Source: Polyangiaceae bacterium
GTDB lineage: Bacteria; Myxococcota_A; Polyangia; Polyangiales; Polyangiaceae
Direction of reading: 5' to 3'
Assembly: GCA_016712345.1 (NCBI GenBank)
Contig: JADJRH010000002.1
Coordinates: forward strand, 328,466-392,465
Length of the DNA stretch: 64,000 nucleotides
The position numbers were made by a program. Below, in pieces: positions 1-3,000 of this stretch. The number at the start of each line of letters is the position of its first letter. Within the stretch, counting starts at the first letter, position 1.

Positions 1-3000
1 TAAGATATGCCTGCGTGACGCTCACATTTTCGTTGGCGGAAACAGTGCGCGATTGCGACCCTGTGATACCTGTATTTTCGTTGTTGGCGGTTTGAGTCAT
101 CAGGTTGTTGGATACCTTTTTTGACTTGCCAAACTGGGCATTCACAAAGACGTGTTCTTTGCCCGCCGCATCGTCGAATCGAATGGAATTGGTGCCTCCA
201 CCGCCCGGAGAACTGTAGCTTTGCAGGGCCGTAACCGTTTTGTTGGCGGGCAGTTGATAGGGAGGTGCAAACTTACCATTATAGGTGCGGCTTACAACGA
301 GCGGCCTGTCGGGATCACCGTCTTCAAAAGCGACCATCACCTCCCATCCAACGCGTGGAATTGCCATGGAGCCCGGCATATTCGCTTGCATGACTCGAAC
401 AGGAAGGGACGATTTATCGTTGGGCTCACCCTCCAAATCCCAGGGAAACTGAACAGTGATCCTTCCCGCGTTGTCGGTATGAATTTCTTCGCCGGAAGCC
501 CCCGTTACAAAGGCACTCTGTATTCCGGCGAGCCGCGGCTTGGGAGTTACATTCGGAAGGCGAAAGGGTAGATCGAGCGGAATGGCTTGGATTTTGGCGA
601 TCACAGGGCCACTTGTTGGAGTCCACTCGTGCGTGACAGCCACCACTACGTATTTACCCGTTGCCTGTGCCGAACCTGAATAGTCGGGGCCCGGTTCAAT
701 TTCAAGCGAAAGGCCGGGGGCCAGGTTGACCGCTGTTGACCGAAATGTGAGAACTACGCTGTCGGCTCGAAGGGCTTCAAGTCGTTTTTTGGCGCGCGCA
801 TCACCAACGCTCGATGTTTTGAATCCACCCGGTGCTTGATACACCTCCACCGTTTTTTCTGTATCGGTGCCCGCTGTCGCGTTTGATTCAAGTTTGAGGG
901 CGGGTTTTTCTTGGTCATAGTCGCGGAGCGTGACTTTACCGGGGCGCCGTTTCGCCCGCAGCTCGGCATCGAATGCGGCGATTGACGCGGGCCCAAGCGC
1001 CGCGGCATCGGTGAGGGGAAGTTTGTCGGTCAGGCCCGGGAGCGCGTCGGAACTGCAATCTTCCACAACAATGATTTCAGACCCGTCGTCGGCGGCTTCA
1101 AACCTGAAAAAAAGACCTTCCTCTTCACACATACGGCGAACGAAAAGAGCGTCATTTTCAGCGTATTGGACAACGTATTGCCGCGCGGCATGCTCCTCCA
1201 TGGTGCGCAGTTTTACGTGATCGTCTGGGTAACCCGCTTCAACGAGAATTTTTTTGACCAAATTGGGAATGGTAATGTCCTGAAAAATGCGGCTCCGCGT
1301 TCGATGCTGAACAACAGCCAAGAGGGGCCGCACGACGGCTTTATAACGCCTCCCCTGGGTTGCTTGAGAAGTTACGAGGGTTGTCCACTGTGTAATCACC
1401 CCGGCGATAGGTCTGTGGGCCGCGCCGTTTTGAATGCCAAGCACGCATGGTTTGCCGAGAAACGACGATGAAGTGAGCGGCTCGGGCGACACGAGCAAAA
1501 GGTCGAACGTGGAAAGTTCACCCAACCTTTCTACCCCGCGAACCTCGCGGCACTCAATCGGCTCGGTTCCATCCACAATGAAGGTAATACCCATGGCCGG
1601 ATCTCACTTTCGAGGGCGCTTGAGTTGAACTGTCTCAAGGTTGGATGAAACGGCTGCTGTGCCGGTCACCGAATAGGCGGGTGCTGTTTTTTCTGAAATG
1701 GGGATGTATTGGGAGCATCCTTTGAGCGCCGTTCCACCTTGTGTACTCAACGTGGTCTGGCCACTGAGAAGACCGGCAACAACGGCGGTCATATTCCCTT
1801 TGAGCTGAACGGGGAGCGGCAAAAGTCCCTCGGCGCTCGGGGGTTCAACGTGTACACTTTGCCAGCGAACAGCGGCGCCGCTTCGAAGGAAATAGAGCGC
1901 GCCTCCGTTTTTTAATACGCCCCAAACAAGCCACTTGTCCGGCCACGGGGGCAACGTGCTCAGTTCTTTGGAGCGCTCATCGTGGGCCGCGAGCGCGCGG
2001 GTAATGGTTGGATCGGCGGTTTTGATACGCATGGACACTCCCTGCCTACCGTAGAGCGCCAATTGATCCATTCGAGCGAGATTCTCTCGAATGAGCAAGC
2101 CCGAAGGATCTTTGGAAAACGGGCTCAATACCCACAAACAATCGCCCAAACTGCCCGCGCCGTAGACGTTTATAAACTCTTTATAATCGCCGGGAAGCGC
2201 GTGGCCTAACATCGCTTCCACGTGACTCCAACGCTCTTCAGAAACCGGTTCTACCCCAGGGGGCGGGGCGAGTTTTTTTGTGAGGTCCGCAAAAGTCATA
2301 CGGCTATTTCCCCTTTCCAGCGGAAGCGCCGTCGGCGGCAAAATTGGGCGGAGGTACCTTTTCAGCCCCCGGGTCAAACGCGCCCCAAGTCAGTTTCCCA
2401 CTCAGGAGAGCGGTTAAAAATTCTGTCATGGTGCCAGGGAATTCTGCGTATCGAAACGACCGCGTTTCCGCCACAACTTTCCACTCATTGGGATTTCCCT
2501 GGGTGAGCCACAGGAGGCCGTCGCCGTTTTCTGTGTGACCCCACGGAAAAACACCTCCGCTTTCTGGAAAGATTGGGTAAGGCATGGAGTTGACCGGGGC
2601 GAGTGGAGGGGGAAGGGTAAACCCGGGAACAGGGTTGTTTCGGCGCGAAGAATGGTAGATGGAGAGCCGAAACCTTACCTTTTCGAGCCACAATTCTGTG
2701 GTAGAAAACGGGTTTAAGACGCGCATGTAGTTGGAAATTGTACCCGAGCCGTAGGTTTGCAAAAACTCCTTGTAATCGGCTGGAAGCGGCGTCCCAATGG
2801 CCGATTCTATAAAGGCCCAATCAGCGGGTTTTGGAGCGTCAACCACCTTTTTGGGAACGGGTAAAACGCTCTGGATCGAGGCCGCAAGGGAGGCCGTTTT
2901 TTTGGTCGTCGCCGTTGTTTTTTTTGCCGCAGGTGTGGCCTTTTTTGCGCTCGCCATGGTTAAAGCACCGTTTCTGTAACAGTGGTTCCACCCACCGGCC

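Follow-up and report, generated by a model that had tools for sequence, protein, structure and literature searches.

Two Divergent SUKH Genes Behind an Rhs/Tox-NucA Toxin of Polyangiaceae: A Candidate Two-Gene Immunity Cassette

Introduction

What does a second, divergent immunity gene do behind a single toxin gene? The question is raised by a locus at the start of a 64,000-nucleotide (nt) stretch of DNA from a Polyangiaceae bacterium (Myxococcota), called the window below (738-kb contig JADJRH010000002.1, positions 328,466 to 392,465 of the forward strand, GenBank assembly GCA_016712345.1). Two tandem open reading frames (ORFs), A and B, follow an Rhs toxin gene there, and both encode proteins of the SUKH (SMI1/KNR4) family. 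The initial annotation took one of the two for the probable cognate immunity gene and suggested that the other is an orphan that guards against a toxin allele of kin strains, so that the locus would record past toxin diversity. Our analysis supports the first proposal and argues against the second. On balance, we think it likely that A and B together make up a two-gene immunity cassette that is conserved and belongs to a type VI secretion system (T6SS) VgrG-Rhs effector module. The second gene is half of a stable, selected pair and falls outside the shifting-array pattern.

Reports of SUKH polyimmunity genes in tandem after Rhs/Tox-NucA toxins go back to 2011-2012 (Zhang, Iyer & Aravind 2011; PMC3482391). 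Zhang et al. (2012, PMC3482391) also catalogued Tox-NucA toxins with Imm-SUKH partners, RHS repeats, and delivery by the T6SS. Judged by its gene content, the A/B locus belongs to this known class, the SUKH immunity genes of polymorphic Rhs/Tox-NucA toxins. What is new here is modest: a rare, undescribed subfamily to which B belongs and an unusually stable pairing of the two genes, which survives the loss of most of the toxin gene.

Organization of the Locus

Every gene in the first 11.5 kb of the window lies on the minus strand. The features that carry the argument are the following.

1..1594, minus strand: 5' portion (531 codons) of a further vgrG gene, truncated by the window edge; it starts 9 nt past the B stop.
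1604..2299, minus strand: ORF B, a 231-amino-acid (aa) divergent SUKH protein, MBK8255235.1; ATG at 2299, stop at 1604-1606.
2304..2957, minus strand: ORF A, a 217-aa SUKH (SMI1/KNR4) protein, MBK8255236.1; ATG at 2957, TAG at 2304-2306.
2960..6967, minus strand: probable Rhs effector gene; the mechanical ORF extends to GTG 7120, and the probable start is ATG 6967.
2963..3382, minus strand: Rhs C-terminal toxin domain, Endonuclea_NS_2 / Tox-NucA (PF13930), about 135 aa past a DPLGL cleavage motif.

The span from 1604 to 2957 that was singled out in the initial annotation corresponds exactly to the two minus-strand ORFs A and B. As was also proposed there, the pair follows one toxin, since the Rhs ORF ends 2 nt before A and carries a single Endonuclea_NS_2 domain. 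The genes are packed closely, with gaps of 2 nt from the rhs stop to the A ATG, 4 nt from the A stop to the B ATG, and 9 nt from the B stop to vgrG. A purine-rich sequence resembling a Shine-Dalgarno site, GGAAAGGGG, lies within the 3' end of A, ahead of B. No terminator-like or promoter-like site was found on the minus strand from rhs to the last vgrG (1-1594). The simplest reading is that rhs, A, B, and the last vgrG are on one transcript.

SUKH Identity of A and B

Both products are recognizable SUKH proteins. The motifs on which the initial annotation relied are present, LPADYKEFLQTYGSG in A and LPGDYKEFINVYGAGSLGD in B. In Pfam, A scores above the cut-offs of SUKH_6 (33.5 bits, cut-off 27) and SMI1_KNR4 (29.0 bits, cut-off 25.4). 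B scores above the cut-off of SMI1_KNR4 (33.1 bits, cut-off 25.4) and under those of SUKH_5 and SUKH_6. The NCBI annotation already calls both A and B 'SMI1/KNR4 family protein', and NCBIfam gave no model for A, B, or the toxin domain. Pairwise alignment of A with B gives 29% identity across 160 residues (BLASTP E = 9e-14). By this comparison they are homologous yet clearly divergent, as the initial annotation had it, and far from near-identical duplicates. A tblastn search found no third SUKH copy within the 64 kb window.

Predicted structures point in the same direction. AlphaFold2 single-chain models were built on an 80-sequence family alignment, and the predicted local distance difference test (pLDDT) score was 85.5 for A and 81.3 for B. 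SUKH structures were the top PDB matches of the A model. The nearest solved structure by sequence profile is Bacillus subtilis YobK, PDB 2prv (E = 1.6e-4), which is also among the top fold matches for both models at a sequence identity of 15-18%. Both proteins are confidently predicted to adopt the SUKH alpha+beta fold. YobK, an immunity protein to the LXG toxin YobL, shares this predicted fold with A and B. Unlike them, it is a 153-aa protein of a Gram-positive bacterium that faces a type VII secretion system LXG toxin, and it lacks the insertion and the basic tail of B that are described below.

The Rhs Toxin

The Rhs protein scores above the Pfam cut-offs for DUF6531, RHS_repeat (E = 3.6e-70), and the RHS core, and a vgrG gene lies upstream of it. 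Its N-terminus gives a weak Tox-PAAR-like match of 20.6 bits, under the cut-off of 31. Its C-terminus matches Endonuclea_NS_2 (PF13930), the domain called Tox-NucA in the Aravind nomenclature, with 42 bits against a cut-off of 27. The protein is 60% identical over its full length to the 1322-aa Rhs proteins of Polyangium, and the alignment begins at ORF residue 52. Because of this alignment with the Polyangium orthologues, ATG 6967 is the probable rhs start. The toxin domain itself is 66-71% identical to the Polyangium toxins and about 35% identical to a Methylomonas toxin. The catalytic H, N, N, and E positions are invariant in an alignment of seven toxins, and the 'GH' of the Endonuclea_NS_2 family is 'AH' in the Polyangiaceae toxins. 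No solved structure was found within sequence reach of the toxin domain. The toxin is presumably a Tox-NucA beta-beta-alpha-metal nuclease that acts as a non-specific DNase.

ORF A as the Probable Cognate Immunity Gene

Homologues of A are repeatedly found next to toxins of this family. Single-sequence word-index searches returned two relatives of A and one of B, and profile and exhaustive searches were needed. Three homologues of A (P0002, P0003, and P0005; 33-40% identity) are located 2-10 nt after toxins that end in Endonuclea_NS_2 and that are 34-37% identical to the window toxin. In Methylomonas, P0025 (40% identity to A) ends a PAAR-VgrG-Rhs(Endonuclea_NS_2)-SUKH module of matching design. 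All fetched loci were scanned with hidden Markov models (HMMs) for the toxin domain and the SUKH family. The toxin domain was directly upstream of a family SUKH gene in 14 loci, or in 12 when orthologous Polyangiaceae loci were counted once. The sources are Gammaproteobacteria, an Oscillospiraceae metagenome-assembled genome (MAG), and several Actinobacteria, which together represent three phyla (Proteobacteria, Firmicutes, and Actinobacteria). All of the roughly 80 family members are nearer to A than to B. Toxin-free, stand-alone SUKH genes of A's family are also common.

Because toxin adjacency is conserved among A-type homologues, A can be placed in the cognate position; it is a typical representative of the SUKH lineage with which toxins of this family are paired. 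To judge from these neighborhoods, A very likely provides the cognate immunity to the Rhs Endonuclea_NS_2 toxin, and the probable cognate gene of the initial annotation can now be named. P0005, the best word-index match of B, was also considered as a clue to the partner of B. It was rejected because it is nearer to A than to B.

The A-B Pair in Other Genomes

The pair is not peculiar to the window. A followed by B, 3-7 nt apart, was found in all seven pair-bearing loci, namely the window, four Polyangium species, and two metagenomic lineages. Orthologues of the entire arrangement VgrG-VgrG-small ORF-Rhs(Endonuclea_NS_2)-A-B-VgrG occur in Polyangium sp. y55x31, P. fumosum, and P. sorediatum. 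Identity between the window and the first two of these species is 61% for VgrG, 60% for Rhs, 66-71% for the toxin, 48-49% for A, and 44-46% for B. The gap from B to the downstream vgrG is 3 nt in Polyangium as against 9 nt in the window. A soil contig (L036) carries A, B, and then the start of a vgrG. A more distant A-B pair (L033-35) has a 7-nt gap and different flanks, with neither a toxin nor a vgrG; a secreted protein and then a 314 nt spacer lie upstream of it. The reading frame of B is intact in all seven loci, and its full length is conserved, tail included.

The pair has also outlived most of the toxin gene in one species. Compared with P. sorediatum (L052), the P. mundeleinium locus (L051 7925-11453) has lost about 7.9 kb and about 3.5 kb in two clean deletions. 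These took away both upstream vgrGs, the small ORF, about 1058 rhs codons, and most of the downstream vgrG. The locus keeps the 3' end of rhs, called as an 87-aa Endonuclea_NS_2 ORF, together with an intact A, an intact B, and 247 vgrG codons. The P. mundeleinium locus is a natural toxin-loss variant that retains both immunity genes.

The B Subfamily

Relatives of B are scarce. An exhaustive HMMER search of 1.84 billion cluster representatives returned 664 SUKH hits, and only three of these are B-type clusters: P0084 (41% identity over the full length), P0085 (36% over the full length), and a 98-aa fragment. This fragment, P0086, is the closest relative of B at 55% identity and was matched to no contig. 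B-type proteins have in common an internal insertion (about residues 85-115 in B) and a C-terminal extension that ends in V-K/Q-L-K-K/R-x-R-K/R; B of the window ends in ..VQLKRPRK. The tail carries a net charge of +4 to +11 across its last 40 residues and is predicted to be disordered. B-type proteins have a neutral to basic isoelectric point (pI), whereas ordinary family members are acidic. By these features, B belongs to a rare, long-branch Polyangiaceae SUKH subfamily without a described function.

The context of B-type genes is uniform. Among those of known context, none stands alone or comes first after any toxin. No Rhs-core-like sequence or orphan fragment of an Rhs C-terminal (CT) region lies in the 4-nt gap between A and B, and no toxin with a B-type partner was found among the loci examined. 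A fusion of an A-type and a B-type domain was sought as a Rosetta stone. Multi-SUKH proteins do exist, and all of their domains are A-like.

The Polyangiaceae proteins show several peculiarities of charge. Residues 4-23 of A in the window (window 2880-2950) form a Lys/Ala/Thr-rich low-complexity insertion, AKKATPAAKKTTATTKKTAS, that has no counterpart in the Polyangium and L033 orthologues, and this A has a net charge of +7 over its first 40 residues. The B tail of the window is weaker (+4) than B tails elsewhere (+8 to +11). The insertion and the weaker tail may represent a charge trade-off between A and B, seen across three independent lineages only. The A and B proteins of Polyangiaceae are neutral to basic (pI 6-9.5 in the window, L012, L013, L033, and L036), as against an acidic pI of 4.5-5.1 in typical members of this SUKH family. 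The toxin domain of Polyangiaceae is mildly acidic (pI 5.5-5.8), and this lineage may depart from the usual charge relation of nuclease to inhibitor.

Selection and Phylogeny

The ratio of nonsynonymous to synonymous substitution rates (dN/dS) was computed among the Polyangium loci by the Nei-Gojobori method; one B pair without synonymous differences gives no value. The ratio for A lies at 0.07-0.23 and that for B at 0.08-0.17. In the comparison of Polyangium sp. y55x31 with P. fumosum, it is 0.09 for the toxin domain and 0.09-0.16 for the VgrGs. As estimated from these codon changes, B is under purifying selection comparable to that on A, and so it is a maintained gene. Because of this selection, B appears to be a working gene, neither a relic nor a recent capture. 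A passive record of past toxins would not be expected to be selected as strongly as A.

A neighbor-joining tree of 102 family members was built with 200 bootstraps. The A orthologues are monophyletic in 184 of 200 replicates and the B orthologues in 198 of 200. The two clades are never sisters. The tree, which contains no A+B sister grouping, gives no support to B as a recent tandem duplicate of A. B could have arisen by an old duplication followed by acceleration or by separate acquisition, and its long branch prevents a choice between the two.

Proposed Function of the Pair

The two-gene cassette could work as follows. The C-terminal Tox-NucA/Endonuclea_NS_2 nuclease of the Rhs protein would be released in the target cell, where it would act as a DNase. 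A would be made by translational coupling, its start codon lying 2 nt past the rhs stop, and would bind and block the nuclease domain in producer and sister cells. B would share the transcript, starting 4 nt after A, be passed on together with A as a fixed unit, and serve as an immunity-type binder of Tox-NucA nucleases.

The contribution of B to the cassette can be envisaged in more than one way. Tentatively, B might cover toxin variants of other Polyangiaceae that lie outside the range of A, which would be classical polyimmunity in an ancient and fixed form. A slightly less likely proposal is a split 'dual-SUKH' system, in which A and B would engage their own Tox-NucA at different surfaces or as an A-B-toxin complex. 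If true, this would be the first two-paralogue dual immunity for an Rhs toxin, and it would offer a function for the unexplained second domain of dual-SUKH immunity proteins. The conserved basic disordered tail of B might place the protein on the nucleoid, where the DNase acts. The cultured Polyangium species provide a clean natural system in which to ask whether extra immunity paralogues serve against other toxins or reinforce protection against the same toxin.

Several observations weigh against a fixed two-gene cassette. The seven pair loci come down to three deep lineages, namely the MAG of the window, the Polyangium group, and L033-35; the four Polyangium species and L036 are 88-99% identical to one another, and 'fixed' therefore rests on a small sample. 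Of the two loci without a working toxin, that of P. mundeleinium may have lost it too recently, and L033, at 4.3 kb, may be too short, to speak for lasting retention. Most lineages of the toxin family have one A-type SUKH as their entire immunity complement, and therefore B is not generally required. Finally, the A and B clades are sisters in 0 of 200 replicates, with B on a long branch whose placement is unreliable.

Alternative Explanations

One alternative holds that A and B both act on the nuclease of their own locus, giving redundant or stronger neutralization. We regard this as possible, although it falls well short of probable. It would fit a pair that is invariant in order and spacing and whose members have diverged about equally fast, with 49% (A) and 46% (B) identity to the Polyangium orthologues, and have similar dN/dS values. 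The combination of the same toxin family with two SUKH genes of about 30% identity recurs in an Actinophytocola MAG (L029) and in a metagenome locus (L049). This family also includes fusions with two or three SUKH domains; however, the two double-SUKH fusions that were checked are uninformative, one of them being an orphan. Most members of the toxin family have one SUKH gene only, and dual immunity is reported as rare.

Two described systems bear on this alternative. The immunity protein I2 of the Bacteroidales E2-I2 system is a conserved dual-SUKH protein (PMC12247911), and like the A-B pair it holds two divergent SUKH domains as one conserved unit against a T6SS nuclease. In contrast to A and B, which are separate genes behind a Tox-NucA toxin, the domains of I2 are fused and its toxin is of the WHH type. 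Moreover, SUKH-2 alone is needed in I2, one domain being necessary and sufficient (PMC12247911), which speaks against a joint action of the two. The Tde5-Tdi5a/Tdi5b system of Pseudomonas aeruginosa resembles the window locus in its layout: two immunity genes come after the gene for a beta-beta-alpha-metal DNase that the T6SS delivers, and both immunity proteins bind this toxin, Tde5, at non-overlapping sites (PMC13392607). Unlike A and B, Tdi5a and Tdi5b are mutually unrelated in structure and do not belong to SUKH.

The proposal of the initial annotation is a second alternative. According to it, B is an orphan immunity gene left from, or captured against, another Rhs-CT allele, and the locus is an 'immunity island' of past toxin diversity. 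This is the textbook view of paralogous immunity genes behind a polymorphic toxin (PMC3482391), and we now consider it unlikely for B. The locus does resemble homogeneous SUKH polyimmunity loci (PMC3482391), since A and B are tandem, distantly related SUKH paralogues on one strand beside a polymorphic toxin. An identity of about 30% between A and B is compatible with different binding specificities, and stand-alone orphan SUKH genes of this family exist. Orphan SUKH proteins at 38-39% identity to the cognate protein were still protective (PMC12247911). However, described polyimmunity regions differ in how many immunity genes they have and of which type, even among strains, and are interpreted as backups against foreign toxins. 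The pair discussed here has exactly two members, constant in identity, order, and spacing, and it was found across species in 7/7 loci, a small sample. No B-type gene was seen first after a toxin; the exhaustive search gave only three B-type clusters, and all of those with known context stand behind A. The purifying selection on B equals that on A, and B is for this reason not a passive record. The matching toxin allele that the orphan proposal calls for did not emerge among the loci examined.

The Methylomonas locus (L006-L008, P0025) illustrates what an orphan module looks like. It has the same architecture and toxin family as the window, and its SUKH gene, at 40% identity to A, lies 2 nt past the toxin. 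In contrast to the window, where no CT fragment is present and the second SUKH gene begins 4 nt after A, the cognate SUKH there is followed by an orphan Rhs-CT fragment. The lack of such a fragment ahead of B argues against the orphan proposal. In L006, a metagenome contig, positions 7701-9026 behind the cognate SUKH hold a 174-aa Rhs-core/CT fragment and then a 136-aa SUKH from another subfamily, a textbook example of an orphan toxin-immunity module. L007 and L008 are shorter versions, and the different SUKH occurs in L006 only (one of the three).

A third alternative gives B another job, either as immunity or accessory protein for a cargo of the downstream vgrG or, by way of its basic tail, in a nucleoid- or DNA-associated role. 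Only a short gap separates B from the downstream vgrG (9 nt in the window, 3 nt in Polyangium), its subfamily is set apart by the conserved basic tail and the neutral to basic pI, and SUKH domains bind many different partners (PMC3482391). Yet the genes past the downstream vgrG in Polyangium encode thiolase-like and HEAT-repeat proteins and no recognizable toxin, and immunity genes normally follow a toxin rather than precede a vgrG. The L033-35 pair occurs without any vgrG, and P. mundeleinium lost most of the downstream vgrG and the start of its module while B stayed intact. A role of B for the downstream vgrG module appears unlikely, and another job of any kind seems improbable to us.

That B is a decaying, functionless duplicate could be suggested by its being the more divergent copy on a long branch, but this is effectively refuted by the selection analysis (dN/dS 0.08-0.17), the intact frame in 7/7 loci, and the confident predicted fold.

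Neighboring Genes

Two further genes of the cluster lie upstream of rhs.

6975..7616, minus strand: small conserved ORF between vgrG and rhs; 213 aa, or about 180 aa from ATG 7517.
7534..9705, minus strand: VgrG spike gene, 723 aa, which heads the Rhs module; assigned by homology and synteny.

The small ORF has no Pfam match. It is 50-60% identical to the products of syntenic ORFs of 178-179 aa in Polyangium, and its position makes it a possible adaptor or chaperone of the Rhs effector. The VgrG at 7534-9705 is 61% identical and syntenic to a 723-aa Polyangium protein, whose P. sorediatum orthologue has Phage_GPD and Gp5_trimer_C. It is 31-35% identical to VgrGs that score for Phage_GPD, Phage_base_V, and Gp5_trimer_C, and its class is taken from this comparison. 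The truncated vgrG at 1..1594 has Pfam matches to Phage_GPD, Phage_base_V, and Gp5_trimer_C, and it is 61% identical to the 847-aa VgrG located after B in Polyangium.

The first vgrG of the cluster, at 9716-11558 on the minus strand, is broken into two ORFs that overlap and lie in different frames. Positions 1-121 of Phage_GPD fall in ORF 11061-11558 and the remainder in ORF 9716-11176, which shares 71-73% identity with residues 268-732 of the intact 732-aa orthologue in Polyangium. The two halves lack about 120 residues between them, which indicates a pseudogene or an error in the MAG assembly.

Past the second vgrG of P. sorediatum, L052 carries on the plus strand (13243-16007) a thiolase-like protein, with a weak NCBIfam PRK06147 match far under the cut-off, and a HEAT-repeat protein. 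The next genes are a convergent gene of the DUF2169 adaptor type and a gene with a YkuD L,D-transpeptidase domain. The stretch 13243-16007 appears to be a second, uncharacterized cargo module, which would lie beyond the window edge.

Other Toxin-Like Genes in the Window

Two other toxin-like regions lie on the plus strand. At 33979-41813, a TcB/TcC set resembling Tc toxins is broken over at least five consecutive ORFs. Its parts are SpvB N and C, TcdB_toxin_midN/midC, RHS repeats, an Rhs-core-end motif at 40545-40742, and an unassigned C-terminal domain of about 350 residues. The set represents either a frameshifted or a genuinely split toxin. A DUF559 endonuclease-like gene (42564-43175) lies on the opposite strand between the Tc-like genes and a 415-aa ORF at 43751-44998. 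The start of this ORF (43772-43987) is like an Rhs core end and is similar to the core end of the Rhs protein at 2960-6967, and its C-terminal end is a Cys_rich_CPCC domain (PF14206, E = 2e-22). This ORF resembles an orphan toxin-CT cassette lying downstream of the Tc-like genes.

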